IMG/VR virus record: IMGVR_UViG_3300029915_000016
Span: 18,613 to 82,612 of that record
Strand: one strand, 5' to 3'
DNA from: a virus
DNA: 64,000 bases
Within the stretch, counting starts at the first letter, position 1; every line of letters starts with the position of its first letter. The position numbers and the translations under genes are program-made. Positions 29,166-42,483 of this stretch are shown here, in pieces. The notes below the pieces were generated by a model. The model worked only from the letters and a program-made list of their open reading frames with translations. It had not been told where the DNA came from and ran no database searches.

Positions 29166-30047
29166 ATGAAAAACAGACGATGGGGCGATAACGACAAGTA
29201 TTGGGGTCCGTTTACATACGCGCATTCGGATAAAGAATACAATCCTTTCGCGGTTATACTTGGATCTGGAGACGAGGAGCATCCGGGGTGCTATCTCAGG
29301 CTTGGTGCATTCCATAGGACGCTGATCTGTTCGCTCCCGCCGATCATTCCACCGTATCGCAGGAAGGTAGTTGCGAAGTTTTGGAACGAGGATGACATTA
29401 AGCGTCTAGGACGCAACTGGTACTACGACGTTCATGAGCGTGAGTACGGATTCTCCTATGCCGCGAGTGGATGTATCGGAGATGGTGGATTTCTGCAAGT
29501 CTTTCTTGGCCGTCAGACGCACGACAGCAGCAACGAACAGCGGTGGTCATGCTTCACGCCATGGAATAAATGGAATAACTGGCGTCATGTGAGGAATAGT
29601 TATTACGGTTTGTATGGAGAGTTTTTTGCATCCGAACCACAGCATCGTATCGACTTCACTACGAAGGCAGGAAACGACAAGTACGCGGAGTGGACGGCGA
29701 TTGTGGATGCTTGCCCTACGTTTACGTTCGCATTCAATGACTTTGACGGTGAGTTGCTAACCGCCAAAACTCGTATCGAGGAGCGCCAGTGGGAACTTGG
29801 AACTGGATGGTTTAAGTGGCTATCTAATTTCCATAAGCCAATCATTCACCGTTCGCTTGATATTCAATTCTCAGGCGAAACCGGAAAGCGCAAAGGATCA
29901 TGGAAGGGTGGCACGGTAGGACATTCTATCGAGATGCTACCCGGAGAACTGCACGAGTCGGCGTTTAAGAGATACTGCAAAGAGCACGATATGGTATTCC
30001 TTGGCAGGAGCGGAATAGGAGCATTTGACAATTCCCGTAGTGTGTGA
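29166..30047 (+). CDS. Hypothetical protein
   Basis: RBS AGGAG; long ORF. Confidence 0.6.
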   Translation: MKNRRWGDNDKYWGPFTYAHSDKEYNPFAVILGSGDEEHPGCYLRLGAFHRTLICSLPPIIPPYRRKVVAKFWNEDDIKRLGRNWYYDVHEREYGFSYAASGCIGDGGFLQVFLGRQTHDSSNEQRWSCFTPWNKWNNWRHVRNSYYGLYGEFFASEPQHRIDFTTKAGNDKYAEWTAIVDACPTFTFAFNDFDGELLTAKTRIEERQWELGTGWFKWLSNFHKPIIHRSLDIQFSGETGKRKGSWKGGTVGHSIEMLPGELHESAFKRYCKEHDMVFLGRSGIGAFDNSRSV

Positions 30048-30053
30048 GAGGAT
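30025..30053 (+). promoter_or_regulatory. Putative promoter of tRNA operon 1
   Basis: TTGACA-N17-GAGGAT (weak -10). Confidence 0.45.
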
Positions 30054-30060
30054 TTACCTC

Positions 30061-30132
30061 ATGAAGAACTTGTGCTTATCTCTATCGTCTTATTGCTCAC
30101 TCAGTCTGAGTGGACGAGAGGCTATGGGATAA
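30061..30132 (+). CDS. Leader peptide 1 (MKNLCLSLSSYCSLSLSGREAMG)
   Basis: Codons 4-17 are all Leu/Cys/Ser/Tyr, matching downstream tRNAs. Confidence 0.85.
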   Translation: MKNLCLSLSSYCSLSLSGREAMG

Positions 30133-30156
30133 GTCCAAGTTTAGGATTTGTACCAC

Positions 30157-30185
30157 GAGCCTCCAGAAATGGGGGCTTTTGTTTT
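30157..30185 (+). terminator. Attenuator terminator 1
   Basis: GAGCCTCCA-GAAA-TGGGGGCTT + TTGTTTT; leader GAGGCT can pair with AGCCTC. Confidence 0.8.
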
Positions 30186-30187
30186 GT

Positions 30188-30266
30188 GGGAGAGTACGCC
30201 AACGGAAGAGCGTTTGGACTTAAAATCCAAAGGATATGACGGGTTCAAATCCCTCCTCTCCTACCA
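30188..30266 (+). tRNA. trnL: tRNA-Leu(TAA)
   Basis: Cloverleaf; TTGGA-ctTAAaa-TCCAA; CCA end. Confidence 0.8.
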
Positions 30267-30268
30267 TT

Positions 30269-30341
30269 GTGCCGTAAGCGAAGGACGAGCATCCGATCTG
30301 CAAAATCGGAGAACAGGGTTAAAGTCCCTGACGGCACTCCA
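30269..30341 (+). tRNA. trnC: tRNA-Cys(GCA)
   Basis: CCGAT-ctGCAaa-ATCGG; U discriminator; CCA. Confidence 0.85.
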
Positions 30342-30353
30342 AGTTTAAGATGT

Positions 30354-30439
30354 GCGCGTGTAGCAAAACGGCAAAGCGCAAGGTTTAGGCCCTTGAGGTG
30401 GAAACACCATTGGGAGTTCGAGTCTCCCCACGCGCACCA
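30354..30439 (+). tRNA. trnL: tRNA-Leu(TAG)
   Basis: CAAGG-ttTAGgc-CCTTG; long variable arm; CCA. Confidence 0.9.
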
Positions 30440-30452
30440 GATTTTAGAAGTA

Positions 30453-30530
30453 CCTCGCATGGCGAAATGGAAGAGCGGCGCTCTCAAAAAGCGTGTCATA
30501 TTCCCGGTTCGAGTCCGGGTGCGAGGACCA
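30453..30530 (+). tRNA. trnL: tRNA-Leu(CAA)
   Basis: GCGCT-ctCAAaa-AGCGT; CCA. Confidence 0.8.
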
Positions 30531-30531
30531 C

Positions 30532-30620
30532 GGAGAAGTGCCAGAACGGTAAATGGGCCGCACTGCTAATGCGGTGGTCCTGAAAAGGCCACGTGGGGTC
30601 AGCACCCACCTTCTCCGCCA
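30532..30620 (+). tRNA. trnS: tRNA-Ser(GCT)
   Basis: CCGCA-ctGCTaa-TGCGG; long arm; GCCA. Confidence 0.85.
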
Positions 30621-30627
30621 TGTTTAC

Positions 30628-30718
30628 GGAAGGATGAGCGGAATTGGTATCGCACTCGCTTGGAAAGCGAGCTTATGTCGAAAGGCATATGCAGGTTCGA
30701 GTCCTGTTCCTTCCGCCA
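30628..30718 (+). tRNA. trnS: tRNA-Ser(GGA)
   Basis: CTCGC-ttGGAaa-GCGAG; GCCA. Confidence 0.9.
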
Positions 30719-30722
30719 GTTT

Positions 30723-30813
30723 GGTATACGCCGTCAACGGTGAGACAATCCGCCTCGAAAACGGATGGGGTGTCAGAGATGGCACAGGAGTTCAATTCTC
30801 TCGTATACCGCCA
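30723..30813 (+). tRNA. trnS: tRNA-Ser(CGA)
   Basis: ctCGAaa loop; long arm; GCCA. Confidence 0.85.
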
Positions 30814-30818
30814 AGTTA

Positions 30819-30906
30819 GGCGAGTCCCGCAGACGGCTCTGCGAACGGCTTTGAATACCGTTGGCTCCTGAGAGGGATGGGGGATCGACACCTCGACTCG
30901 CCGCCA
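30819..30906 (+). tRNA. trnS: tRNA-Ser(TGA)
   Basis: ttTGAat loop; long arm; GCCA. Confidence 0.8.
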
Positions 30907-30912
30907 TGTTGT

Positions 30913-31003
30913 GCGTTGGCTGTAGTGACGGTGGACTGCACCAGACTGTAAATCTGGATTCTCTTTGAGGACACTGGGGGTTCAAATCCCTCCCAACGCA
31001 CCA
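30913..31003 (+). tRNA. trnY: tRNA-Tyr(GTA)
   Basis: CCAGA-ctGTAaa-TCTGG; ACCA. Confidence 0.9.
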
Positions 31004-31006
31004 GTA

Positions 31007-31426
31007 TTAAATATCCGAGTTGTACCAGCGAATCATCTTCCTAAATTCGCTTAATCTAATACAGATACAATGATTAATATATTGGCGAAGTGGAGAAATA
31101 ATAACTACATCTGGCATCTTCTTCATTATCCATTTCCCTTTTACCTTGACTCCAATCCGGGTAACTATCTCTGCGCCATAGGAACCTAACCTTAATCCAT
31201 CATTAGGTTTTTTATCTGTTAAGGTGGTCATGTCAAACGTGCTGACAAAATCTACTGCTTTACGGAAGTCTTTGATCGGAATCGTCACATCAGAAAAGTA
31301 TCCACGTACAGACACACGGAACCACATCCTTTTTCCGTCTGCCGTGACGCGAGCATCAAAACCCGGTGCTTCAAACACCGCTACGTTTACATCCCAATTA
31401 TTCCCGTTCAGATCGCGTGGTTTCAT
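31007..31426 (-). CDS. Hypothetical protein, probably leaderless
   Basis: TATAAT just upstream of ATG 31426; internal duplication IPIKDFRK/IRLSEFRK. Confidence 0.5.
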   Translation of the reverse strand: MKPRDLNGNNWDVNVAVFEAPGFDARVTADGKRMWFRVSVRGYFSDVTIPIKDFRKAVDFVSTFDMTTLTDKKPNDGLRLGSYGAEIVTRIGVKVKGKWIMKKMPDVVIISPLRQYINHCICIRLSEFRKMIRWYNSDI

Positions 31427-31734
31427 GAAAGCATTATACATCAAATCAAATAAGGCGCATTTTTTCCTTGACAACTCGCAAGGATAGCGATACGCTTTCT
31501 TTGGGTCTGGATGGCTTCGTATCCCGTTCAAGACGGACCCCACAAATGTCTACCAACGGGAGATAGGAGATAGCTTCTCGGTAGCTATCTGACTTGGTGG
31601 AGTCCTATTCAATACGAAATGGGCCAGAATTTGACGCGGGGAGACGGTATTTATACGTTTCCCCGTTTTCTGTTATACTAGGGGTGTCGGATGTGTCACC
31701 ATCCGGCAAAGCCTCATCGTTCGGAGGAACGAAT

Positions 31735-32475
31735 ATGACACCCCTATCCAAAGATACACCTATTACTCGTAAACGCGAAAGAGCATTATATTATCGAGAG
31801 TATAGGAAGAAAAAAGGTGCAAATCAAAGATCAGAACAAGAAGCCTTGCGTCTAAAAGCATTAGAAGAATACATCAAAAACCCAAACGTATGCTTGTTTT
31901 GCTCAAAAGTAATTGAACCTAAAATAACAGAAAAACTCTCGATAACTAAACGTAAGAGATACTGTGACGTTAAATGCTCAAGTGCGTCAAGAAAGAGAGA
32001 GTGTAAGTGTGTACCATGCATCTACTGCGGTAAACCATTAAAGAGACACCTAAAGAAATTCTGCACGAAAAGCTGCGCGTCTCGGTCAAGGGGAATCTTG
32101 CAATCTATTACGAAAGGCGATCTTTTCTCGAAAAGATCTGGATACCAATCGGCGAGGAGCGCCATACAAAGGGATGCTAGAACTGTGTACTTGTGGAGTA
32201 AAAGGAAACTGGAGTGTTTAATTTGTGGATACTCGAAGCATGTGGATATAGCGCACATCAAACCTGTTTCAGATTTCGATGATGCGTGTACTGTCGCTGA
32301 GATAAACGCGATGGATAACCTTGTTTCTCTATGTCCTAATCACCATTGGGAATTTGATCACGGTTTTTTGAAATTCAACGCTGGTTGCTTTGAAGGATCG
32401 AATACACGTAAAGTAATCCGAAAACGTGATTACGATCAAATAAACCTATTTCCACTAGCGCAGAATAATTCTTGA
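31735..32475 (+). CDS. HNH endonuclease with N-terminal Cys clusters
   Basis: CLICG...AHIKP...NLVSLCPNHH; RBS GGAGG. Confidence 0.85.
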   Translation: MTPLSKDTPITRKRERALYYREYRKKKGANQRSEQEALRLKALEEYIKNPNVCLFCSKVIEPKITEKLSITKRKRYCDVKCSSASRKRECKCVPCIYCGKPLKRHLKKFCTKSCASRSRGILQSITKGDLFSKRSGYQSARSAIQRDARTVYLWSKRKLECLICGYSKHVDIAHIKPVSDFDDACTVAEINAMDNLVSLCPNHHWEFDHGFLKFNAGCFEGSNTRKVIRKRDYDQINLFPLAQNNS

Positions 32476-32506
32476 CAACTGTATATAATTGCGTTATCGT
32501 TTAATT

Positions 32507-32584
32507 CGCGGGGTGGACTGGAGACGGTTCCAGCTTGGTCTCATAAGCCAAATCACGTCGGTTCGATTCCGATTCCCGCAACCA
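32507..32584 (+). tRNA. trnfM: tRNA-fMet(CAT), initiator type
   Basis: C1:A72 mismatch; ctCATaa; own promoter TTGACA-N17-TATCGT (32472-32500). Confidence 0.8.
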
Positions 32585-32658
32585 TTTCGAGACGTGACCT
32601 GATCTGTCTCAACGGGCTTGCACGATGACAAGCGCATCTAGCAATAAGGAGAATTGAG

Positions 32659-33018
32659 ATGCGTACACGCTGCAAGTTCAAAGTTGTGTCGGTGGAAGAA
32701 ATAGAAGGCGAAATCAGCCGCAAATCATTTAAGGGCGATTACGGAACCAACATCGATGAGTACGGTGGTCTAGCTGGACCGGAATACACCGAGAGTCAGG
32801 GTTTAAGAAACGGTGAACAGTACAAATGGGTTCCAACTGGGAAGTATTGCCAGAATGTACGGCTGGCCGCACAGTATGATTCGCGGGACTCGGAAGATAT
32901 GAGTTTTGCAGCGGCGACACCTTCAGGAGAACTCAAGATTCTTGTGAGTAACCCTGTGGTGGTTGGGAGTTTTAGGCCGGGGAAGAGTTTTTATCTCGAC
33001 CTGATTCCGTGTGAATAA
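32659..33018 (+). CDS. Hypothetical phage protein
   Basis: RCKFKV...ATPSGEL...NP...F.PGK.FYLD family motif; RBS AAGGAG. Confidence 0.7.
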   Translation: MRTRCKFKVVSVEEIEGEISRKSFKGDYGTNIDEYGGLAGPEYTESQGLRNGEQYKWVPTGKYCQNVRLAAQYDSRDSEDMSFAAATPSGELKILVSNPVVVGSFRPGKSFYLDLIPCE

Positions 33019-33238
33019 GGTTCCACGTCCCCTCACGGTATGGTGACGTGGTGGTGGTCCGGTGGGGTGCAAACCCTATTGGGGTCTGACAGCCGGGAAA
33101 GACCGGCAAGGATTGATGGGTTGCGTCGGCGCATCCCTTAACGGGTGGCCTAGGAGTTAGGAAACCAGACGGTTGTTACCGTTGGACGGAGAATACCGCT
33201 AGAACAGTTGGGCCGATGAGATGGGCGCTGTGGCACTC

Positions 33239-34480
33239 GTGAATCACCGTCATCTAAATCAGACAGTTTCCGGCTTCAATGGCATCTGCGTTAGCTAAAG
33301 ACTTGCGTCCCAACTTCCGTCTTACGTTGCCTCCACCAGCAGTAGCGCCAATCCCTGACGCCAGTATCCGTAAACCTTCGTCACGGATATTCTTCGCCGC
33401 ATTTATATCGCGGTCATGATGTGTTGAGCAGGATGGGCAGGTCCAAGAACGAACAATTAACGGCATCTTACCATTCTGAAATCCGCACTCGGAACAAACT
33501 TTGCTTGACGGAAAAAAGCGTCCTATTTTTATGAAAGCCTTACCATCGCGCTCTGCTTTGTACTTGAGAAACAATGTTAGTGTTCCCCACCCTACATCTG
33601 ATACTGCTTTCGCAAGGTTATGGTTAGCTATCATTCCCTTCACATTCAAATCCTCTACGATCACGACTTGGTTCTCATCAATGATCTTGCGAGAGACTTT
33701 GTGAAGGTAATCACGGCGCTGGTTTGTGATATGTTCATGAACTCGTGCAACCTGAATACGTGCTTTGTTGCGACTTGATGAGCCTTTCTTTTTGCGACTC
33801 AAAGATTGCTGCTTACGCTTTAGATTCTTTTCTGACTTGGCAATCCAGCGAGGATTATTAAACTTCGATCCATCGCTAGTAATTGCTAAATGCGTTAAAC
33901 CTACGTCTACACCGATTGCCTTCCCTTCGATAGAAATAGGAGGAACAGGAATAGAATCATCGGTAAGAATCGAAGCGTAGTAGTGGCCGCATGGATTCTT
34001 GCTCACCGTGACCGTCTTGATTCGTCCAACAATCTCACGGTGTATGACAGCCTTAACTTTGCCAACTTTAGGAAGATTTATTATACTCCCGTCTATTTTA
34101 ACGTGTTGCGGATACTGAATCGACTGTTTTCTATGCTTAGATTTGAATCGTGGATATCTAGCCCTCTTCTCAAAGAAGTTCTGGAACGCTGCTGCCAAAT
34201 TACGAATTGATGATTGAAGGACTTGCGCGTATGCGTCTTTCATCCATTCATGTTCTGTTTTCAATTCAGGCAAACGATTCGCCATTGCAACAAATGTGAG
34301 ACTTTTTCCGGTTTCCTTGTACACTTTCTGCGTTTCCGCCAAAGCCCAATTCCACGTCCAACGAGCACATCCAAACTGGCATACAAGTAAATTTTCCTGC
34401 TCAAAGGTGGGATAGAGACGAAATTTTGTCGTATTCAACATTTATTTAATCCTACCATGTATACGATTAAATGTCAATAT
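33239..34480 (-). mobile_element. IS200/IS605-derived tnpB unit with right end; no TnpA and no visible left end
   Basis: RE hairpin CTGTC..GACGG then TTCAC ending 33239; own TTGACA-N17-TAGGAT promoter. Confidence 0.6.
33254..34441 (-). CDS. tnpB: TnpB RNA-guided nuclease
   Basis: GVDVG, VEDL, Zn ribbon, DRDINAA; RuvC D-E-D intact. Confidence 0.95.
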   Translation of the reverse strand: MLNTTKFRLYPTFEQENLLVCQFGCARWTWNWALAETQKVYKETGKSLTFVAMANRLPELKTEHEWMKDAYAQVLQSSIRNLAAAFQNFFEKRARYPRFKSKHRKQSIQYPQHVKIDGSIINLPKVGKVKAVIHREIVGRIKTVTVSKNPCGHYYASILTDDSIPVPPISIEGKAIGVDVGLTHLAITSDGSKFNNPRWIAKSEKNLKRKQQSLSRKKKGSSSRNKARIQVARVHEHITNQRRDYLHKVSRKIIDENQVVIVEDLNVKGMIANHNLAKAVSDVGWGTLTLFLKYKAERDGKAFIKIGRFFPSSKVCSECGFQNGKMPLIVRSWTCPSCSTHHDRDINAAKNIRDEGLRILASGIGATAGGGNVRRKLGRKSLANADAIEAGNCLI

Positions 34481-34546
34481 TTCTCTATTTTTGCGTTTAC
34501 TTATTTCACTAAGATGTGATATAAAAAGTAACAGCAACAAGTTTAC

Positions 34547-34620
34547 GGTCCCATGGTCTAACGGTATGATTCATCTCTGTCTAAGATGCGTTCGGGGTTC
34601 GACTCCCCGTGGGATCGCCA
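34547..34620 (+). tRNA. trnD: tRNA-Asp(GTC)
   Basis: CATCT-ctGTCta-AGATG; GCCA. Confidence 0.85.
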
Positions 34621-34627
34621 TAGTTGT

Positions 34628-34711
34628 GCTGCCGTTCTCGGTACTGGTATCTGAGCACCGTCTTTCAAGCGGTTGAATTTAATGCGAGTTCGATTCTCGT
34701 CGGCAGCGCCA
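34628..34711 (+). tRNA. trnE: tRNA-Glu(TTC)
   Basis: ACCGT-ctTTCaa-GCGGT; GCCA. Confidence 0.8.
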
Positions 34712-34718
34712 AGTTTAT

Positions 34719-34793
34719 GTCCTTGTCTTCCAACGTTTAGGAACTCCGGCTCTCTACCGGATAACGCGGGGTAAGCACCCTCCAAGGACACCA
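34719..34793 (+). tRNA. trnE: tRNA-Glu(CTC)
   Basis: TCCGG-ctCTCta-CCGGA; atypical T loop; CCA. Confidence 0.75.
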
Positions 34794-34805
34794 TTTCGAG
34801 AACGT

Positions 34806-34907
34806 ATGACGAGAACGCAGATCGCAATAGGATTTGTAGTCAAGGTAGCAACCAAGATGTTTTGGTGGATAATTTTGATATTCCTGTTGTGGATACAAAG
34901 TTTGTGA
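34806..34907 (+). CDS. 33-aa hydrophobic peptide
   Basis: MTRTQIAIGFVVKVATKMFWWIILIFLLWIQSL. Confidence 0.35.
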   Translation: MTRTQIAIGFVVKVATKMFWWIILIFLLWIQSL

Positions 34908-35048
34908 GTTTGTGCGGCGGCGTGGAGCGACACGCTAAACCTTATCGTGATATTCATCCCCCACGAGATAAGATAAGGTGAGGAAGATTGGGGGAACGAC
35001 CTGTATGCCGGTTTCGTACCCGGCCCGCACAAATAAATCACAAACTGC

Positions 35049-35078
35049 TTGACATTTGAAAACGAACAAGGATATAGT
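35049..35078 (+). promoter_or_regulatory. Promoter of tRNA operon 2
   Basis: TTGACA-N18-TATAGT; ATG 7 nt downstream. Confidence 0.7.
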
Positions 35079-35085
35079 GAAAAAC

Positions 35086-35160
35086 ATGATGACCTTTACC
35101 ACACATACCGCGACACAAGCACCGACGCAGCCAGCCGGTAATCGCGGAAGTGCAGGATAG
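35086..35160 (+). CDS. Leader peptide 2 (MMTFTTHTATQAPTQPAGNRGSAG)
   Basis: Codons 3-21 all T/F/H/A/Q/P/G/N/R, the amino acids of the downstream tRNAs. Confidence 0.85.
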   Translation: MMTFTTHTATQAPTQPAGNRGSAG

Positions 35161-35203
35161 GGTCTCAGTAGGATTTTTACTCGCATAGCGAATAAAACTG
35201 AAG

Positions 35204-35236
35204 AGGCCCGGTTCAAACCAACGAATCGGGCCTTAG
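35204..35236 (+). terminator. Attenuator hairpin 2 (weak U tract)
   Basis: AGGCCCGGTTC/GAATCGGGCCT; competing GGGTCTC at 35160 pairs with GAGGCCC. Confidence 0.6.
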
Positions 35237-35251
35237 TGCGTAGGAGTAGCA

Positions 35252-35689
35252 ATGGGGAAAGCGATTCACGTTATTAGCAATGTTGATGAAGATATGAAGA
35301 CGGCAGATTGTGCGTTTTGTGGTCGCGTGAAAGTGAAACTGAAAAATAATGGTAAGGGTAGATCAAGGCGGTGGGCATGTACTATCGCGCAGAAAAAATG
35401 GGACGGTGCAAGATGTAAAACAGGAAAACCGCTTCGCAATATGACAGACGAGCAAATGGCTCACTACGTATTCAATCGACACGGAAGTTGTGATATTTGC
35501 GGTAGCGTACCACGCCGAATGTTGAACCGAGATCACTGCCATGTAACAGGAAACCTTCGCGGCTTGCTGTGCTATCGCTGTAATACGCTGCTAGGAAAAT
35601 TTGATGACAGCATCGAGAAACTCCGTATAAAGGCAGATATTTTCCTGAAGGCGGCATGTTATCTCGAAAGGAACGATACAAAGTTTTGA
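35252..35689 (+). CDS. Endonuclease VII-family nuclease
   Basis: CDICG..RDHCH.TG.LRGLLCYRCN. Confidence 0.85.
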   Translation: MGKAIHVISNVDEDMKTADCAFCGRVKVKLKNNGKGRSRRWACTIAQKKWDGARCKTGKPLRNMTDEQMAHYVFNRHGSCDICGSVPRRMLNRDHCHVTGNLRGLLCYRCNTLLGKFDDSIEKLRIKADIFLKAACYLERNDTKF

Positions 35690-35778
35690 TGTGCGATACC
35701 CGAGAGGTAGCAGGGACGATACTGTTAATATCGAGAGGTTTATCCTCCACCGTAGGTTCGAATCCTACTCGCACAGCC
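35690..35778 (+). tRNA. trnN: tRNA-Asn(GTT), long variable arm, encoded end GCCT rather than GCCA
   Basis: CGATA-ctGTTaa-TATCG. Confidence 0.75.
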
Positions 35779-35791
35779 TTTAGTAAGAAGT

Positions 35792-35865
35792 ACCTCGTTC
35801 GTTCAACGGCAGGACGACTGACTCTGACTCAGTTAATTGACGTTCAAATCGTCAACGGGGTGCCA
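35792..35865 (+). tRNA. trnQ: tRNA-Gln(CTG)
   Basis: ACTGA-ctCTGac-TCAGT; GCCA. Confidence 0.85.
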
Positions 35866-35876
35866 AAGATTAACGT

Positions 35877-35950
35877 GGGATCGTCGTTCAACGTTAGGAC
35901 ATTGCCCTTTGGAGGCAATTATCAAGGTTAGAATCCTTGCGATCCTGCCA
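35877..35950 (+). tRNA. trnQ: tRNA-Gln(TTG)
   Basis: TTGCC-ctTTGga-GGCAA; GCCA. Confidence 0.85.
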
Positions 35951-35958
35951 AACAGTAA

Positions 35959-36033
35959 GCGGGTGTATATCAACGGTAGATAGTCTCGTTGCCAACGAGA
36001 AGGAAGAGGGATCGTCACCCTCCACCCGCTCCA
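35959..36033 (+). tRNA. trnG: tRNA-Gly(GCC)
   Basis: TCTCG-ttGCCaa-CGAGA; TCCA. Confidence 0.85.
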
Positions 36034-36128
36034 TATTAGGAATAGTAGCCGACATGGAACATAAGATGATTTTGATGAGTGCCGACTTCCGAGAGGTACA
36101 CAAGGTTGTAGTGGCAAAACGTAAACAT

Positions 36129-36203
36129 GCTGGTATGGCCGAGAGCTTAGGCGCTGACCCCGTAAGTCAGAACACACAGGTTGAAATCCTGTTGCCAGCC
36201 CCA
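36129..36203 (+). tRNA. trnT: tRNA-Thr(CGT)
   Basis: CTGAC-ccCGTaa-GTCAG; CCA. Confidence 0.75.
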
Positions 36204-36238
36204 TTTCAAGAGAGTCAAGCTACGGATTGAGGTACGTG

Positions 36239-36784
36239 ATGAGCACGTTGATGAAAAAGCCGGTTTTGGTCCTTAACGCCTCGTATGAGCCGATCAGGAT
36301 AGTTCCAGCGCGTCGTGCTCTCACGTTGATTTGTAAGGGTGCTGCAATGGTTGAGCAACCTACACGGATAGAAGTCTATCCGGGTATAACTCTACCATCT
36401 GTAATCCGGCTTAGGACATATCGGCATATTCCTATACGCCTTCAAATTGTCAGTCGCAAGAACATTTATATCCGTGACGGTCATAGGTGCGGATATTGTG
36501 GACAGCAATTCAAAGGTGATGAACTGACGTTAGATCACATTCAACCAAGATCCCGTGGAGGAAAGAACGACTGGTCTAACCTAGTAACTTGCTGCCGAAA
36601 AGACAACCATCGTAAGGCAGACAGGACGCCAGAGGAGGCAGGAATGAAACTGCTCCGTAAGCCTCTTCCGGCAACAGTTCACACAGGACGTGGATTGCTA
36701 CGTTCCATGGCGCTTGAAGTTGGGGCGTGGGAAAAGTATTTGTATTCCGACTCAAAAGGAGAAACGAAGTTGCAGTTTTCGTAA
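36239..36784 (+). CDS. HNH endonuclease (McrA-like)
   Basis: VLVLNASYEP, RDGHRCGYCG, TLDHIQPRSRGG, WSNLV. Confidence 0.9.
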   Translation: MSTLMKKPVLVLNASYEPIRIVPARRALTLICKGAAMVEQPTRIEVYPGITLPSVIRLRTYRHIPIRLQIVSRKNIYIRDGHRCGYCGQQFKGDELTLDHIQPRSRGGKNDWSNLVTCCRKDNHRKADRTPEEAGMKLLRKPLPATVHTGRGLLRSMALEVGAWEKYLYSDSKGETKLQFS

Positions 36785-36788
36785 GTTT

Positions 36789-36860
36789 GCCGAATGCTCT
36801 GAGTAGCAGCGGGAGCTTGTATCTCCTGCCCGGTCGGTTCGATTCCGACATTCGGCTCCA
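36789..36860 (+). tRNA. trnT: tRNA-Thr(TGT)
   Basis: GGAG-ctTGTat-CTCC; TCCA. Confidence 0.75.
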
Positions 36861-36960
36861 AGTGGCTGAGGAAGCCAATCCGTTAAGCGTGGAGCACATG
36901 GCTTAACGGGCTAGGGGACACGGGGCGAGTGCTACGCAATCCGACTCCACCAAAGTTCAT

Positions 36961-37036
36961 GGCGGCTATAGTTCAGAGGCAGAACGCCGGTCTGTGGCAT
37001 CGGATGTCGGGATTTCAAAATTCCCTAGCCGCCCCA
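36961..37036 (+). tRNA. trnH: tRNA-His(GTG)
   Basis: G-1:C73; ctGTGgc. Confidence 0.85.
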
Positions 37037-37043
37037 TTTTAAC

Positions 37044-37118
37044 GGGCCAGTAGCATAGATGTAATGCGTCACCCCTGCAAGGTGAAGTTCGAGGACTCAA
37101 GCCCCTCCTGGTCCACCA
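37044..37118 (+). tRNA. trnA: tRNA-Ala(TGC)
   Basis: G3:U70; TCACC-ccTGCaa-GGTGA. Confidence 0.8.
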
Positions 37119-37127
37119 GTTTTGTAC

Positions 37128-37204
37128 GGCACTGTAGCTCAGAATGGTAGAGCAGGACTCTGAAAAGGTCCGTGTCGCGGTCTCGATAGCCGCCAGTGCC
37201 ACCA
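37128..37204 (+). tRNA. trnF: tRNA-Phe(GAA)
   Basis: GGACT-ctGAAaa-GGTCC; ACCA. Confidence 0.85.
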
Positions 37205-37205
37205 T

Positions 37206-37283
37206 CGGAATGTAGCGTAGTCTGCTTAACGCGCTCGCTTCGGGAGCGAGAGATCGCAGGTCGAAATCCTGCCATTCCGACCA
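37206..37283 (+). tRNA. trnP: tRNA-Pro(CGG)
   Basis: CTCGC-ttCGGga-GCGAG. Confidence 0.9.
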
Positions 37284-37289
37284 GTTTAA

Positions 37290-37364
37290 CGGGGTGTAGC
37301 TCAAAGGAAGAGCACTAGTTTTGGGAACTAGAGGCTGTGGTATCGTGATCCACCACCCCGACCA
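37290..37364 (+). tRNA. trnP: tRNA-Pro(TGG)
   Basis: CTAGT-ttTGGga-ACTAG. Confidence 0.85.
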
Positions 37365-37380
37365 TCTATTAGGAGTAGCG

Positions 37381-37626
37381 ATGAGGGATATAACAATACA
37401 GGAAGCATCCGAGTGTATCAAGAGAACGCTACCGCGCTGCACGCCTGATATTTGGTTTCTCACGCGCTTCAAGGATTACGTGAATAACAACACAGAAGTT
37501 GACGATATGGAGGAAGATGAATTTTTCGATAGTTTTCTTCCTTGCGCTTTGTGGGCTTTCACTGAAGCGATGTACAGCACGATTATGCCAGTTACTAGGT
37601 TTGGCGAATGTGCGCCTCTAGCTTAA
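37381..37626 (+). CDS. Small hypothetical protein
   Basis: RBS AGGAG; 3' end overlaps tRNA-Arg. Confidence 0.5.
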   Translation: MRDITIQEASECIKRTLPRCTPDIWFLTRFKDYVNNNTEVDDMEEDEFFDSFLPCALWAFTEAMYSTIMPVTRFGECAPLA

Positions 37627-37687
37627 TGGAAAGAGCGGCACTCTACGAAAGTGTCAGGTTCCCGTTCAAGTCGGGAGGGGCGTACCA
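37612..37687 (+). tRNA. trnR: tRNA-Arg(ACG)
   Basis: GCACT-ctACGaa-AGTGT; ACCA. Confidence 0.85.
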
Positions 37688-37717
37688 AAGATTTTCACAT
37701 GCAAGCAAAAATAGTGC

Positions 37718-37746
37718 TTGCAATTGCGCAGAGTTTGATGTAAGGT
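37718..37746 (+). promoter_or_regulatory. Putative promoter of the Y RNA/Ro60 operon
   Basis: TTGCAA-N17-TAAGGT with TG extension. Confidence 0.55.
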
Positions 37747-37865
37747 TGGAAATGTTGAGTTTGAGCTTCGGTGCAGGAATGGAAACATGACCATCCTGAC
37801 GAATTAGGTCTCAGAGTATCGAGCCTTGTAGCTAGGTTACAGGACGGCTACCACCGGAAATAAGT

Positions 37866-38011
37866 AAGCGAGAGCCGGAAGAGTTGGATTATCGCCTATG
37901 GAGCGGGTTATACGGGTTCGAGTCCCGTCTGGGGAACCAATAACGAATCGACTTCCCCGGTCGTCTAATGGCAGGACGCCTAAACATCCAGTTCGCTATT
38001 TGTTCTCGCTT
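37866..38011 (+). ncRNA. Y RNA-like 1 (YrlA-type; T arm before D arm)
   Basis: Terminal stem with GAGCCGGAAG/CTATTTGTTC; GGTTCGAGTCC precedes GTCTAATGGCAGGAC. Confidence 0.75.
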
Positions 38012-38018
38012 TAAGTTT

Positions 38019-38148
38019 TGCACGAGCCGTCCGAATTTCGTTATCCTCCGCCAAACTGGGGGCGTAGCTTAATGGCTAAAGCGCCAGAGTAATCTGGATA
38101 TTGGGTTCGAGTCCCACGTCAACGCGAAGTTCAATTTTTGTTCGTGCA
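38019..38148 (+). ncRNA. Y RNA-like 2 with embedded tRNA-like D/AC/T arms
   Basis: Same terminal motif; TAGCTTAATGG...GGTTCGAGTCC. Confidence 0.7.
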
Positions 38149-38155
38149 GTTTTTT

Positions 38156-38214
38156 GTACGGGTCGGAAGCCAGCGTTACCTTGTAAATATCGCTGTCTGA
38201 TTATTTATCCGTAC
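38156..38214 (+). ncRNA. Y RNA-like 3 (short)
   Basis: GTACGGGTCGGAAG...TTATTTATCCGTAC. Confidence 0.6.
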
Positions 38215-38230
38215 CAATGGAGAGTGAATC

Positions 38231-38710
38231 ATGGGTTTCATAGCCGAAGTTTCAGCCACAGATAGGTTTTGGAGTAAGGTTGATAAATCGGCTGGGCATG
38301 GTCCAAACGGGGACTGTTGGGTTTGGACTGCACGTAGGAATTTAGATGGCTATGGGCAGTTTCGTCCTTCCTCTTGGAGATCAGGTGGTAAACTTGTAAG
38401 CGCACACGTATTTTCGTATCGCGAGAGTTTTGGCGAGTTTGATGCTGGATTACAAGTCCTGCATCGCTGCGATAATCCGGCTTGCGTTAGGGCAGAACAT
38501 TTGTTTGTAGGTACGCAGGGTGACAATGTTCACGACATGATAGCGAAAAATAGATCGGGCCTAAATTTTCTTGGCTCTGATGTGATCGCTAACATTCTCG
38601 CGATGCATGGCAAAGGGATTAAACAGACAGAAATTGCCAAGAACGTTGGGATACACAAGCAATCTGTCTGGAGAATCATTAAGAGGATGGCGGTAAAATC
38701 CTTGGCGTGA
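38231..38710 (+). CDS. HNH endonuclease with C-terminal HTH
   Basis: RFWSKV..CWVW..VLHRCDNPACV..HLFVGT..DN. Confidence 0.9.
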   Translation: MGFIAEVSATDRFWSKVDKSAGHGPNGDCWVWTARRNLDGYGQFRPSSWRSGGKLVSAHVFSYRESFGEFDAGLQVLHRCDNPACVRAEHLFVGTQGDNVHDMIAKNRSGLNFLGSDVIANILAMHGKGIKQTEIAKNVGIHKQSVWRIIKRMAVKSLA

Positions 38711-38717
38711 TAAGTTT

Positions 38718-38787
38718 TGCATGGGTCGTTTGGCTCAGCGTTATCCTTCTAAGATAAAACCGCTGGCTGGTTGTTTTTATCCATGCA
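38718..38787 (+). ncRNA. Y RNA-like 4
   Basis: TGCATGGGTCG...TTTTATCCATGCA. Confidence 0.6.
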
Positions 38788-38795
38788 GTGTTTCA

Positions 38796-38938
38796 AAGTG
38801 CGAGTCGAAAGAAGTTGATTATCTCAACATGAATGTCATGGGTTCGATTCCCATCGTCGTAGTAATACGATGTAGCTCAGTTGGTAGAGCGTCTGGATGC
38901 CGAAAGGCGTATTCGACTTCAACCATTTATTCGCACTT
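38796..38938 (+). ncRNA. Y RNA-like 5 (YrlA-type; T arm before D arm)
   Basis: GTCGAAAG motif; GGTTCGATTCC then TAGCTCAGTTGGTAGAGC. Confidence 0.75.
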
Positions 38939-38942
38939 AAGT

Positions 38943-39044
38943 TTGTCAGAGCCGGATGGGTTTGGTTATCGGTTCAAATCCGCTACACCGCAAGGTGAAT
39001 GGCTGTCCGCAAGGACAATCCAAATCCGCTATTTGTTCTGACAA
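38943..39044 (+). ncRNA. Y RNA-like 6
   Basis: TTGTCAGAGCCG...CTATTTGTTCTGACAA; T arm; GCAA hairpins. Confidence 0.65.
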
Positions 39045-39050
39045 TAAGTT

Positions 39051-39127
39051 TGCAGGGTCGGAAGTTCACTGTTCTCTACTACGAATAGAATGCCGAAAGG
39101 CGCACGGTGGGCACTATTTATCCTGCA
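39051..39127 (+). ncRNA. Y RNA-like 7
   Basis: TGCAGGGTCGGAAG...CTATTTATCCTGCA. Confidence 0.6.
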
Positions 39128-39136
39128 TTGAATGTC

Positions 39137-39179
39137 CATAAGGGTCGAGCGGCAAAGCCGTTCCAATTTTATCCTTATG
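39137..39179 (+). ncRNA. Y RNA-like 8 (minimal; directly upstream of Ro60 RBS)
   Basis: CATAAGGGTCG...TTTTATCCTTATG. Confidence 0.5.
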
Positions 39180-39195
39180 ACCGGGAGAAAGACGA

Positions 39196-40881
39196 ATGAA
39201 GAACTATATCACCAATGTAATTGATCCATCCACCACGCCTCAGACTGAGGCACTTCCAAACAAAAACCAAGTGAAGAACTCCGCTGGCGGATTCGTGTTT
39301 GCTGTGACGCCATGGACCCGGCTTGAGAGGTTCCTTGTACTGGGAACTGAGGGCGGATCATACTACGCATCAGAGCGCGATCTGACCAAGACCAACATCG
39401 ATGGCCTCAAGTCTGCTTTGGCTGAGGATGGCATCCGGTTTGTCAACACGGTTGCCCAAATCAGTCATGCTGGCCGTGCGCCGAAGAATGATCCTGCGTT
39501 GTTTGCATTGGCTTTGGCTGTTGCCGACAAGCGCAAGGATGTATCCGCATACGCCCTGAGCAAGCTGTCAGACGTGGCGAGAATTCCCACACACCTGTTT
39601 TCCTTTGCACAGTACGTGCAGAGCCTACGGGGTTGGGGAAGGGCGCTGCGTGGTGGAGTGGCTGATTGGTATCTGTCTAAGCCTGCTGACAAGTTGGCTT
39701 ACCAACTTGCAAAGTACCAGTCGCGTAACGGATGGTCAAACGCAGACCTTTTGCGCCTGAGTCATGCCAACCCTGAGTTGCAGCCTGACCATAAGATTCT
39801 TTTGAATTGGGCTGTGAAGGGATGGGAGTCTGTTGGTGACGATCCTCATCCGTCAAAGGCTGTTCTTCCGGTGTGGGCATTTGAAAAGGCAAAGCGCCTC
39901 ACTCCTCAAACGGGAATCAAGGAACTGGTTAGTCTCATTGCGGATTACGATCTTCCGCGTGAGTGCATTCCTACCGAGTTCTTGTCTCATATTGAGGTAT
40001 GGGATGCATTGCTTCAGAAGATGCCAATGACGGCCATGATTCGCAACCTTGGAAAGATGACTTCCATCGGACTAGTCTCGCCAAACAGTGAGGCGGCAAA
40101 GATGGTAGGAAAGCGCCTTGAGGACGCAGAACTGCTCCACAAGGCACGGATTCATCCTATCTCTGTGCTGATGGCACAATCTGTCTACAAGTGCGGTCAT
40201 GGACTCAAAGGCAACTTGTCATGGTCTCCTGTACCGCGTGTTGTAAACGCTCTAGAGAAGGCTTTCTATGCTTCTTTTGCCAACGCACCAAAGACCGGAA
40301 AGAGGTTCTACATCGGCCTTGACGTTTCCGGTTCGATGGGAAGCGGATATGTTGCCGGAAGTCAATTGACTCCTCGTGAGGCTGCTGCTGCTATGGCAAT
40401 GGTAACCATGAAGACGGAGGACGAGTATTACATCGCTGGATTCACGAACGGCACATCCCGCTCTGCATGGTCTAGCCAAGGATATGGCTCTGGTGTCACG
40501 AAGTTGGAATTGACTCCTGATATGACTTTGAAAGCTGCTTGCCGGTACACTTCTGATTTGCCTTTCGGTGGAACAGACTGCGCTTTGCCAATGATCGATG
40601 CTTTGGAGAAGAAGATCCCTGCGGACGTGTTCATGGTCATCACTGACTCTGAAACGTGGGCAGGAACCAAGCACCCAACCGTTGCTTTGCAGGAATACCG
40701 CAACAAGATGAAGATCGACGCCAAGTTGATCGTCATGGGAATGGTATCGAACGAGTTCACGATTGCCGATCCTACCGATGCGGGACAGATGGACGTGGTT
40801 GGATTCGATGCGTCCGTTCCACAGGTCATCGCTCAGTTCATCGGCGTGGATGAGCCTCTGGCTGTTGAAACAGACGACTAA
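39196..40881 (+). CDS. rsr: Ro60/Rsr TROVE-vWA RNA-binding protein
   Basis: NSAGGFVF, RLERFLVLGTEGGSYY, GWGRALR, KYQSRNGWS, MIRNLGKM, vWA DVSGSM, ITDSET. Confidence 0.95.
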   Translation: MKNYITNVIDPSTTPQTEALPNKNQVKNSAGGFVFAVTPWTRLERFLVLGTEGGSYYASERDLTKTNIDGLKSALAEDGIRFVNTVAQISHAGRAPKNDPALFALALAVADKRKDVSAYALSKLSDVARIPTHLFSFAQYVQSLRGWGRALRGGVADWYLSKPADKLAYQLAKYQSRNGWSNADLLRLSHANPELQPDHKILLNWAVKGWESVGDDPHPSKAVLPVWAFEKAKRLTPQTGIKELVSLIADYDLPRECIPTEFLSHIEVWDALLQKMPMTAMIRNLGKMTSIGLVSPNSEAAKMVGKRLEDAELLHKARIHPISVLMAQSVYKCGHGLKGNLSWSPVPRVVNALEKAFYASFANAPKTGKRFYIGLDVSGSMGSGYVAGSQLTPREAAAAMAMVTMKTEDEYYIAGFTNGTSRSAWSSQGYGSGVTKLELTPDMTLKAACRYTSDLPFGGTDCALPMIDALEKKIPADVFMVITDSETWAGTKHPTVALQEYRNKMKIDAKLIVMGMVSNEFTIADPTDAGQMDVVGFDASVPQVIAQFIGVDEPLAVETDD

Positions 40882-40900
40882 CAACAACCGATTGTGAGCA

Positions 40901-40934
40901 GGGGGTGCGGGAATATTCGCACTCCCTATTTTTT
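40901..40934 (+). terminator. Intrinsic terminator after Ro60
   Basis: GGGGTGCGG/TCGCACTCC + T run. Confidence 0.7.
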
Positions 40935-40945
40935 CAGGAGTAAAC

Positions 40946-41269
40946 ATGTATATCGTAGCTCTAATCTGGATGCACTTTGTATCTGATTTCGTCCTACAAT
41001 CGGACAAGATGGCGATCAATAAGTCAAAGGATAACCGTTGGCTCTTCTTTCACTGCCTTGTGTACTCTACACCATTCTTTGTCTTTGGATGGAAGTTTGG
41101 ATGCGTCACACTCCTATTCCATTTCGTGACAGACTACTTCACATCTCGTGGAACGTCCTACTTGTGGAAGAAAGAGATGCGCCACTGGTTCTTCACTTTA
41201 ATCGGCTTCGATCAAGCGATCCATCTGACGACATTATTTTTCACGTACCGATTTTTATGCTTGCGTTAG
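40946..41269 (+). CDS. DUF3307-like membrane protein
   Basis: HFVSDFVLQ...K...HF.TD...DQAIH. Confidence 0.8.
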   Translation: MYIVALIWMHFVSDFVLQSDKMAINKSKDNRWLFFHCLVYSTPFFVFGWKFGCVTLLFHFVTDYFTSRGTSYLWKKEMRHWFFTLIGFDQAIHLTTLFFTYRFLCLR

Positions 41270-41289
41270 GACTCGAAGTGGTGTACATT
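41261..41289 (+). promoter_or_regulatory. Putative promoter of tRNA operon 3
   Basis: TTGCGT-N17-TACATT. Confidence 0.55.
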
Positions 41290-41337
41290 GATTTTACACC
41301 GCAGAAGATCGTGCAGTCGCAGTCGGAAGGATTGAAT

Positions 41338-41412
41338 ATGCAGATCAGGACCAAATCCGTGAGATCCATAACCATGACCGGGAAGCGGGTCATTTGGGGA
41401 ACTTGCGTATGA
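41338..41412 (+). CDS. Leader peptide 3 (MQIRTKSVRSITMTGKRVIWGTCV)
   Basis: RBS GGAAGGA; 19 of 23 post-start codons are amino acids of the downstream tRNAs. Confidence 0.85.
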   Translation: MQIRTKSVRSITMTGKRVIWGTCV

Positions 41413-41437
41413 GGGTCTGAGTGCATTTGTGGTACAC

Positions 41438-41468
41438 AGACCTTCGCCTAGAGCGAGGGTTTTTTGTT
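41438..41468 (+). terminator. Attenuator terminator 3
   Basis: AGACCTTCGC-CTAGA-GCGAGGGTTT + TTTGTT; antiterminator GAGGGTCTG (41411-41419) pairs with CAGACCTTC. Confidence 0.85.
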
Positions 41469-41484
41469 GGAGTTCTTTGACAAT

Positions 41485-41558
41485 AGGGGATTAGTCTAAT
41501 GGCAAAACGTCTGCCTCCAGAGCAGAATTTACGGGTTCGAGTCCTGTATCCCCTGCCA
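41485..41558 (+). tRNA. trnW: tRNA-Trp(CCA)
   Basis: TCTGC-ctCCAga-GCAGA; GCCA. Confidence 0.9.
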
Positions 41559-41563
41559 GATTT

Positions 41564-41632
41564 GGCACGTATCCAAGGCGGAAAGCGGCTCTCATAAAGC
41601 CGTAAACTGGTTCGAGTCCAGACGTGCTACCA
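41564..41632 (+). tRNA. tRNA-Met or Ile2 (CAT), short D arm
   Basis: CGGCT-ctCATaa-AGCCG; ACCA. Confidence 0.7.
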
Positions 41633-41693
41633 AGTTCACGGCGGTTTAAACCTAAACCGATGGCGCAACACCATCCTGCCGTGATTAGTTTTT

Positions 41694-41771
41694 GGGGGTG
41701 TAGCTAGTGTTGGCACCAGCAGTCTCCTTATAAGAGACCGTCCGAAGGTTCGATTCCTTCCACCCCTACCA
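41694..41771 (+). tRNA. trnI: tRNA-Ile(TAT)
   Basis: GTCTC-ctTATaa-GAGAC; ACCA. Confidence 0.8.
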
Positions 41772-41775
41772 TAGT

Positions 41776-41862
41776 GGGACTGTGGCCTAGTCAGGTTTTG
41801 GGCACCCGGCTCTTACCCGGCGCGGAAACGCAACGTAGGTTCAAATCCTACCAGTCCCACCA
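41776..41862 (+). tRNA. trnK: tRNA-Lys(CTT), long variable arm
   Basis: CCGG-ctCTTac-CCGG; GCGGAAACGC arm. Confidence 0.75.
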
Positions 41863-41873
41863 ACACTTTTAAC

Positions 41874-41949
41874 GGGTTTGTCCTCCAACGTCTAGGAAAC
41901 TCGCCTTTTAAGCGAAGCAATGTGGGTTAGAGTCCCACCAAACCCACCA
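41874..41949 (+). tRNA. trnK: tRNA-Lys(TTT)
   Basis: TCGC-ctTTTaa-GCGA; ACCA. Confidence 0.8.
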
Positions 41950-41950
41950 T

Positions 41951-42028
41951 GCACTCGTACCGGCCTCGCCTTCTAAGCGAGTTCACCGTAACTGGAATAT
42001 GCGAGTTCGACTCTCGCCGAGTGCCCCA
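41951..42028 (+). tRNA. trnR: tRNA-Arg(TCT), no canonical D arm
   Basis: Perfect acceptor, anticodon and T arms; only 7 nt at the D position. Confidence 0.7.
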
Positions 42029-42033
42029 GTTTT

Positions 42034-42110
42034 GCCGCTGTATCTCCCCTGCCTCCTAAGCAGGTAAGAGTAAGTGGATGATGACGGTTCGAGTCCGTCC
42101 AGCGGTTCCA
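42034..42110 (+). tRNA. trnR: tRNA-Arg(CCT), no canonical D arm
   Basis: Same architecture as the neighbouring Arg(TCT). Confidence 0.7.
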
Positions 42111-42125
42111 TGAGGGAGAAGTGAA

Positions 42126-42401: not shown

Positions 42402-42408
42402 ACTTTTT

Positions 42409-42483
42409 GCAGGCGTGGTGAAACGGAGATCACAAAGCCCCCCGAAGGCTTAATTCTCGGTTCGAATCCGAGCGCTTGTACCA
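42409..42483 (+). tRNA. trnR: tRNA-Arg(CCG)
   Basis: AAGCC-ccCCGaa-GGCTT; ACCA. Confidence 0.8.

Follow-up and report, generated by a model that had tools for sequence, protein, structure and literature searches.

A putative leader-peptide attenuator in front of a nine-gene tRNA cluster of an uncultured peat phage

Yanofsky-type leader-peptide attenuators can be multivalent: among the enterobacterial amino-acid operons, the ilvGMEDA leader responds to Ile, Leu, and Val and the thr leader to Thr and Ile. In Escherichia coli, the pheST attenuator, whose leader is pheM, controls phenylalanyl-tRNA synthetase. The element described here precedes nine transfer RNA (tRNA) genes, cluster A, in a 64,000-nucleotide (nt) stretch of viral DNA (the window; bases 18613–82612 of the 82.6-kb IMG/VR virus record IMGVR_UViG_3300029915_000016, CheckV completeness 83%). 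Built around a 23-codon open reading frame (ORF), leader A, it probably controls a nine-gene tRNA operon as a transcription attenuator of the ribosome-mediated (leader-peptide) type, sensing tRNA supply. The phage would then most likely make the cluster A tRNAs only when ribosomes read Leu, Ser, Cys, and Tyr codons slowly.

The role and expression of phage tRNA genes have been debated for decades, in terms of codon compensation, host shut-off, and evasion of tRNA-targeting defence (PMC10264068). That paper proposes that phage tRNAs substitute for host tRNAs that defence nucleases have removed; its title and abstract make no mention of leader-peptide control of tRNA genes.

The source of the window is a roughly 100-kb uncultured peat phage, and the same sequence is contained in many peat metagenomes. 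About 37 tRNA genes, all on the + strand, lie between 30188 and 42890, interspersed with HNH and EndoVII endonuclease genes, an insertion sequence (IS) transposase gene, and a Ro60-like gene. Neither megablast nor blastn matched the region to a cultured phage, and no close relative was found there; an exact 25-mer of tRNA-Leu (TAA) gave zero matches in IMG/VR.

Leader A and the codon match to its tRNA genes

The anatomy, statistics, conservation, substitution pattern, and alternative folds of leader A were read from the sequence. Its features are as follows.

30025–30030, + strand: −35 hexamer TTGACA, perfect, at the same distance in all seven A-type leaders compared; its columns are invariant in alignment A2
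30045–30053, + strand: candidate extended −10 element (TGa GAGGAT), 17 nt after the −35 hexamer
30061–30132, + strand: leader ORF, 23 codons from ATG at 30061 plus TAA at 30130–30132; ORFs of 20–24 codons in six relatives
30070–30111, + strand: sensor run, codons 4–17, all Leu/Ser/Cys/Tyr, covering every one of the nine downstream anticodons
30066–30142, + strand: helix 1:2, putative anti-antiterminator or pause hairpin, −32.8 kcal/mol, less perfect in relatives
30116–30165, + strand: helix 2:3, putative antiterminator, −22.6 kcal/mol, the minimum free energy (MFE) fold before the terminator 3′ arm exists
30157–30187, + strand: helix 3:4, intrinsic terminator, −14.8 kcal/mol, with a 9-bp GC-rich stem (30157–30178), a GAAA loop, and a U-run (30179–30187)

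Leader A would encode the peptide MKNLCLSLSSYCSLSLSGREAMG. Its codons 4–17 are TTG TGC TTA TCT CTA TCG TCT TAT TGC TCA CTC AGT CTG AGT, in exact agreement with an earlier note on this DNA. The same note had claimed that all nine anticodons downstream find a codon in this ORF, and they do, six by Watson-Crick pairing and three (AGT, TCT, TAT) by G:U wobble. It had also singled out CTC as a codon with no dedicated tRNA in cluster A, and this is confirmed in the sequence. The tRNA genes of the cluster are listed below.

30188–30266, + strand: tRNA-Leu (TAA), ARAGORN/Rfam
30269–30341, + strand: tRNA-Cys (GCA), default tRNA search
30354–30439, + strand: tRNA-Leu (TAG), ARAGORN/Rfam
30453–30530, + strand: tRNA-Leu (CAA), ARAGORN/Rfam
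30532–30620, + strand: tRNA-Ser (GCT), ARAGORN/Rfam
30628–30718, + strand: tRNA-Ser (GGA), ARAGORN/Rfam
30723–30813, + strand: tRNA-Ser (CGA), ARAGORN at relaxed threshold, weak tRNA-clan match in Rfam
30819–30908 (approximate), + strand: tRNA-Ser (TGA)-like gene with a non-canonical T-loop, cloverleaf by folding and eye only
30913–31003, + strand: tRNA-Tyr (GTA), ARAGORN/Rfam

Seven of these nine are called by default ARAGORN and by Rfam at gathering score. The Ser-TGA-like gene was called by none of the tRNA finders used; in a related contig, L113, the counterpart stretch folds by eye into a cloverleaf with the identical T-loop sequence ATCGACA. Cluster A (30188–31003) consists of exactly the class II (long-variable-arm) tRNAs, Leu, Ser, and Tyr, plus Cys. 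The three clusters of the window, A, B, and C, differ in the amino acids they serve and overlap little, Thr, Gly, and Arg being divided by anticodon between B and C.

Clusters B and C are each preceded by a sister leader of the same kind.

35086–35160, + strand: sister leader B, a 24-codon ORF covering 12/12 tRNAs of 35690–37687
41338–41412, + strand: sister leader C, a 24-codon ORF covering 12/12 tRNAs of 41485–42890, all by Watson-Crick pairing (P = 6.8e-8)
41411–41446 and 41438–41462, + strand: predicted antiterminator and terminator of leader C, from folding

The exact probability that 22 codons drawn from phage gene codon usage cover all nine anticodons is 4.0e-4 for leader A, and under a trinucleotide null it is 2e-3. 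Taken alone, this coverage is of modest significance: of 771 ATG-initiated ORFs of 15–40 codons in the 82.6-kb genome, eight attain 9/9 for cluster A. Leader A is one of the two shortest of the eight, most of the others having 34–39 codons; the second short one has 23 codons and lies on the opposite strand, inside tRNA cluster C. For the sister leaders the exact probabilities of full coverage are 3.1e-4 (B) and 6.0e-5 (C), giving a product of 7e-12 for A, B, and C, and among the same 771 ORFs the 12/12 score for cluster B is reached only by leader B and that for cluster C only by leader C. The leader-by-cluster matrix accordingly reads 9/9, 12/12, and 12/12 on its diagonal and 1–5 off it, leader A covering 2/12 anticodons of cluster B and 5/12 of cluster C. 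An unbiased scan of the 317 + strand ORFs between 29 and 44 kb placed each leader first for its own downstream cluster, leader A in a tie with one other ORF. The same scan in two related complete phages ranked the leaders 1, 1, and 1 of 641 ORFs (G001) and 1, 3, and 1 of 608 (G002). The match between leader codons and downstream tRNAs is not due to chance.

Conservation of the module and of its codon class

Relatives were reached by two routes. A single-sequence scan of viral contigs with the gene upstream of leader A (PF25187 family) found nothing, and a profile of this gene retrieved four syntenic metagenome contigs (L110, L111, L113, and L115; protein identity 61–70%). A small membrane-protein gene before leader C led to the complete phages G001 and G002 (138.5 and 134 kb). 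Together with the window these give seven A-type leaders. The A-type module is present in all six relatives, where tRNAs for Leu (TAA), Cys (GCA), Leu, Ser, and Tyr follow a hairpin and U-run; leaders B and C are retained in G001 and G002. The A module persists in G001 and G002, where the PF25187 gene is absent; promoter and leader are therefore parts of the tRNA operon and not of the upstream gene, and the module moves as a single unit.

Other loci gave no such module. The upstream-gene profile also returned 80 loci at ≤60% identity, and almost all of the 60 that were scanned are without tRNAs; one of the profile-scan loci (L022) has a Ser-Ser-Tyr tRNA cluster and no convincing leader. Among loci anchored on the Ro60-like gene only L104 carries a large tRNA array, and this negative control contains no codon-matched leaders. 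The same ORF scan applied to the tRNA-rich mycobacteriophage Catera found no codon-matched leader. A metatranscriptome run (X24) matched just short tRNA-like pieces at 90–95% likeness and is uninformative on expression.

In all seven A leaders the promoter is followed at once by the short ORF, whose translation is predicted, and the start codon lies 6–10 nt downstream of the −10 element. In the relatives, too, 17 nt separate TTGACA from the −10 element, which has the form TGn plus a hexamer in which A2 and T6 are invariant. The same bases could alternatively serve as a Shine-Dalgarno sequence (GAGAGGA) for read-through transcripts from the upstream gene. The hexamer is better read as a −10 element, because no purine-rich Shine-Dalgarno sequence occupies this site in L115 (AATCCT) or L111 (TAGTGT). 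On this reading the leader mRNA would be leaderless or nearly so.

The ORF is enriched in codons tied to the putatively regulated product, with full 9/9 coverage, frame-specific enrichment, and substitutions that stay within the set. Runs of 13–14 consecutive Leu/Ser/Cys/Tyr codons occur in all seven A leaders. The window ORF has 14/22 such codons in frame versus 7/21 and 8/21 in the other two frames, and the five leaders tested have 14–15 of 20–23 in frame versus 3–8 in the others. Codon order is shuffled in L110, L115, and G001; the inventory is nearly constant, in that each of the five tabulated leaders contains CTA, CTG, TTA, and TAT once each. Peat metagenome contigs supply two further variants, which consist of Leu/Ser/Cys/Tyr codons throughout except for two leading codons.

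Four leaders are colinear over positions 4–17, and all 13 alternative codons found there remain Leu/Ser/Cys/Tyr, where a random single-base change would keep a fraction of 0.40 in the set. Seven of these 13 alter the amino acid. The same substitutions break eight of the 44 pairs of the window MFE fold, six in helix 1:2 and two in the terminator stem, none of them compensated. Substitutions that remain in the set while pairs are broken without compensation point to the codon class as the conserved object, and it is this class, rather than the peptide or the long hairpin, that the pattern indicates to be under selection.

Alternative folds and competing explanations

The intrinsic terminator separates the leader ORF from the first structural gene. 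Its stem is followed by TTGTTTTGT, which ends one base before the first tRNA; adjoining tRNA-Leu in this way, the terminator leaves no room for another promoter. The hairpin and U-run are retained in all relatives, with compensatory changes in four of the nine pairs. GAGGCT was found at 30118–30123 and AGCCTC at 30158–30163, the positions given for them in the earlier note. The putative antiterminator is a composite hairpin in which a GAGGCU:AGCCUC outer helix is followed by UGG:CCA and an inner stem of 8 bp. Six bases of the terminator 5′ arm are engaged in it, and the window, L113, and L111 agree in 16 of its 18 pairs. Helix 1:2 has the sensor codons as its 5′ arm and GAGGCU together with the stop codon as its 3′ arm. 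The whole untranslated leader is predicted to fold into helix 1:2 plus the terminator (z = −4.7 versus shuffles), a fold in which helix 1:2 would block antitermination when there is no translation. Among the window, L113, and L111, helix 1:2 shows no compensatory pairs and several broken ones.

From these features we infer the transcription start, translation, stalling, and switch of an attenuator. Host RNA polymerase would start at the promoter formed by TTGACA, the 17-nt spacer, and the extended −10, and the RNA, leaderless or nearly so, would open with the 23-codon ORF. In the stall model, 30115–30142, and hence GAGGCU, lies under the ribosome when the stop codon occupies the A site. If codons 4–17 were read at normal speed, the ribosome at the stop codon would mask GAGGCU (30118–30123), the 5′ strand of the antiterminator; the terminator (30157–30178 plus U-run) would then form and transcription would stop one base before tRNA-Leu. 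Without translation, helix 1:2 (30066–30142) would sequester the GAGGCU strand, and termination would result likewise. If a matching charged tRNA were scarce, the ribosome would stall at about codons 7–15, positions at which the modelled ribosome opens helix 1:2 and leaves GAGGCU free. The hairpin 30116–30165 could then form before the terminator 3′ arm is made, and the polymerase would read into the tRNA genes. The tRNAs produced would relieve the slow decoding, so that the leader would be a homeostatic sensor of the supply of nine tRNA isoacceptors for four amino acids. As there are just one or two codons of each type, the sensor would work as an OR gate.

With the ribosome placed at codon 10 and no terminator 3′ arm yet made, the antiterminator is the MFE fold in all seven A leaders. 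In each of these pre-3′-arm folds, the partner of 6–11 nt of the terminator 5′ arm lies at the stop codon or immediately upstream of it. Judged by eye, the folds appear to fall into three sub-families that make this pairing with different sequences. The structure is more stable than 293–300 of 300 shuffles. Clean equilibrium switching in the stall model is confined to L110, L115, and sister leader C, in which the antiterminator is as stable as the terminator or more so. Constrained folding, which the earlier note had proposed as a check, is therefore favourable in part: the antiterminator forms first, but at equilibrium the terminator is favoured in the window. The pairing of GAGGCT with AGCCTC stands in the same position, since GAGGCU is indeed the antiterminator 5′ strand and would be covered by a ribosome at the stop, but the 6-bp count itself is no better than in shuffled sequences.

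Several observations weigh against attenuation by competing helices. When only RNA downstream of the ribosome is folded, the probability of the terminator in the window is at least 0.9 at every stall position. At equilibrium with the 3′ arm in place, the terminator is more stable than the antiterminator at every stall position, by 3.8 kcal/mol in the window and by 6.8–8.3 kcal/mol in G002, L113, and L111. As for terminator-arm bases paired upstream, 171 of 300 shuffles of the upstream sequence reach the six of the window; it is in stability alone that the structure stands out. Since the terminator wins at equilibrium in the window, the switch would have to be kinetic, by kinetic trapping. In the trp attenuator, too, the terminator is the more stable of the two structures and switching is kinetic. 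A pairing at the 5′ end, CCUCAU:AUGGGG, let the antiterminator win; it was discounted, as it lies behind the ribosome and would be absent from a leaderless RNA.

The codon content and the start of the leader raise further difficulties for the same reading. CTC is retained in all leaders though the cluster has no tRNA for it. L111 keeps TCC despite having no Ser-GGA, so that codon-to-tRNA covariation within the A family is imperfect. Each sensor codon is present just once or twice, with no tandem runs, which makes the sensitivity uncertain, and codons 4–6 (UUG, UGC, UUA) and 16–17 fall outside the modelled stall window. The Shine-Dalgarno assignment is ambiguous, and two relatives start with GTG, a poor start for leaderless initiation in E. 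coli. The strong hairpin of leader B (35203–35232) lacks a U-run in the window and likewise in G002, so leader B may use another mode of termination.

Some of these points would fit an ORF that is a real tRNA-supply sensor but whose ribosome modulates Rho access, RNase E or RNase III cleavage, or precursor stability, the hairpin being a leaky constitutive terminator. Such a sensor would account for a terminator that is thermodynamically favoured in the window and in the relatives closest to it, for an antiterminator pairing count not above that of shuffles, and for a leader B that keeps its codon match in the window and G002 while its hairpin has no U-run. It nevertheless appears unlikely, because L115, L110, and leader C show a clean antiterminator/terminator switch in the stall model, and because the antiterminator 5′ strand lies at or just before the stop codon in every folded A leader, as attenuation requires. 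Less probable still is ordinary punctuation, in which a terminator of the upstream gene is joined to a processing or stability hairpin (an RNase III site, for example) and the ORF is an accident of a pyrimidine-rich arm. The ORF does lie almost entirely within one near-perfect 77-nt hairpin, and from its T/C-rich 5′ arm about 41% Leu/Ser/Cys/Tyr codons would be expected by composition (a hand estimate). Yet the enrichment is frame-specific in all five leaders tested, and eight of 44 MFE pairs, six of them in the hairpin, are broken uncompensated while 13 of 13 changed codons stay in the set. Three relatives have their codons in a different order, and leaders B and C, of quite different base composition, match their own tRNA sets. 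A conserved promoter, moreover, separates the upstream gene from the ORF and persists where that gene is absent. An RNase III-type double-stranded RNA site would be expected to show a compensated long helix free of coding constraint, whereas here frame and codon class are kept. On this sequence evidence, punctuation appears largely refuted.

The roughly 125-nt unit from promoter to terminator could also be a gene in its own right, acting in trans through a small RNA or a small hydrophobic peptide, with its position before the tRNAs incidental. It is self-contained, its terminated transcript would accumulate and is highly structured, and the peptide is rich in Leu, Ser, and Cys and resembles some small membrane peptides. 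This explanation is just as improbable as punctuation: the peptide is not conserved, given that the residue differs after seven of 13 codon changes and that three relatives have the codons in another order; the unit directly adjoins the matching tRNA cluster in every relative examined; and three different units match three different tRNA sets. Leader-peptide attenuation, the reading of the earlier note, is thus the one supported by the conserved promoter, the selection on codon class, the terminator adjoining the tRNAs, the stop-codon geometry, and the matched sister leaders.

Sister leaders, neighbouring genes, and related systems

Leader C (region 41261–41484) is the cleanest switch of the set. 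Its predicted antiterminator, GAGGGUCUG..CAGACCUUC, overlaps the UGA stop codon; it is the MFE fold for stalls at codons 2–21, and the terminator returns with the ribosome at codons 22 to stop. Leader B (region 35049–35251) has a near-consensus promoter, TTGACA, an 18-nt spacer, and TATAGT, with the ATG 7 nt after the −10. An EndoVII-type endonuclease gene (35252–35689) separates leader B from its tRNAs in the window; in G002, leader B lies 93 nt before tRNA-Asn with no endonuclease gene between. Leaders A and C of G002 end in TAG, and their counterparts in the window end in TAA and TGA. G002 also carries (L192, 3903–3988) an ochre-suppressor-like tRNA with anticodon TTA where the window has tRNA-Lys (TTT).

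Neither the Asp/Glu cluster nor the Met tRNA was found to have a leader, whether in the window, L111, or L113. An IS-type transposase gene (33254–34441, − strand; phrog_506, E = 9e-129) lies just upstream of the Asp/Glu/Glu tRNA trio (34547 to ∼34790). The tRNA-like gene at 32507–32584 has a two-base ‘anticodon’ in ARAGORN and scores 27.6 bits in Rfam, below the gathering score; L111 and L113 have tRNA-Met (CAT) at the matching position, after an ORF of 139–175 amino acids. Within the tRNA clusters, the spacers 36861–36961, 41632–41693, and 42567–42645 form stable stem-loops or tRNA-half-like folds to which no tool gave a name. A gene for a Ro60-like RNA-binding protein (phrog_850) occupies 39196–40881, preceded by sub-threshold matches to the Y-RNA-like YrlA at 38805–38919 (41 bits, gathering score 69) and 37885–38009; Ro-like genes are common in cluster C mycobacteriophages. 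L113 contains, at 5803–6151 between tRNA-Met and tRNA-Asp, a two-piece permuted transfer-messenger RNA (tmRNA) of alpha-proteobacterial type (Rfam, 70.8 and 73.9 bits), which is a weak hint of Alphaproteobacteria as hosts; prophage homologues of PF25187 point the same way, again weakly.

Taken together, leaders A, B, and C might form an inducible counter-defence in which each leader would monitor how its own tRNA block's codons are decoded and switch on that block when the host tRNAs are cleaved or depleted, a possibility we put forward only tentatively. Triggers could include anticodon nucleases or phage-induced host shut-off, and only the attacked tRNAs would be replaced. With the Ro60/Y-RNA-like genes and the tmRNA of the relatives, the leaders would then make up a phage-borne translation-surveillance module. 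The physiological trigger may be host tRNA loss, through shut-off or defence nucleases, or general homeostasis.

If the attenuator operates as proposed, phage tRNAs would be made if, and only if, their codons are being decoded slowly. A textbook mechanism would be extended to a new class of targets, with direct feedback, the regulated product being the very molecule that is sensed. The leaders could offer synthetic biology natural and compact multi-codon sensors of ribosome speed. As an annotation signal they would mark operon boundaries in tRNA islands, and they would predict which tRNAs are co-transcribed across inserted homing-endonuclease genes.

A full-text literature search found no account of leader-peptide control of tRNA genes. 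At gathering score or E ≤ 1, no Rfam cis-regulatory family, the Leu_, His_, Thr_, Trp_, and Phe_leader families included, matches 30000–30190, and the T-box family RF00230 has no match in 30000–43000 at E ≤ 1. Catera, a Bixzunavirus, resembles the window in its large tRNA array interspersed with homing endonuclease genes and in the presumed role of sustaining translation in the infected cell; it differs in that its clusters show no sorting by amino acid and lack leader ORFs matched in codons to the tRNAs. T-box riboswitches also place a leader RNA before translation-related genes and switch between terminator and antiterminator by tRNA status, but they bind one uncharged tRNA through a specifier codon and T-box motif, with no ribosome or ORF involved. 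Closer is the pheST attenuator, in which leader-peptide attenuation likewise controls a component of the translation apparatus and the signal is the level of charged tRNA; it is chromosomal, senses a single amino acid, and has a protein product, so a tRNA gene is not its target.

Like leader A, the ilvGMEDA and thr leaders have a short ORF that follows the promoter directly and is rich in the sensed codons, and an intrinsic terminator before the first structural gene; a single leader senses, or in leader A would sense, several amino acids. Their mutually exclusive helices 1:2, 2:3, and 3:4, and an antiterminator strand masked by the ribosome at the stop codon, are predicted for leader A as well. 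They differ in regulating biosynthetic enzymes, whereas leader A would regulate tRNAs, a product that directly relieves the stall. Leader A would address four amino acids through nine isoacceptor codons that occur once or twice each, in contrast to the tandem runs of those leaders, and unlike them it is phage-borne and its mRNA would be leaderless or nearly so. Leader A resembles these known leaders neither in sequence nor by Rfam. The best-supported reading is that leader-peptide attenuation is applied here to tRNA genes, a known mechanism with a new target.

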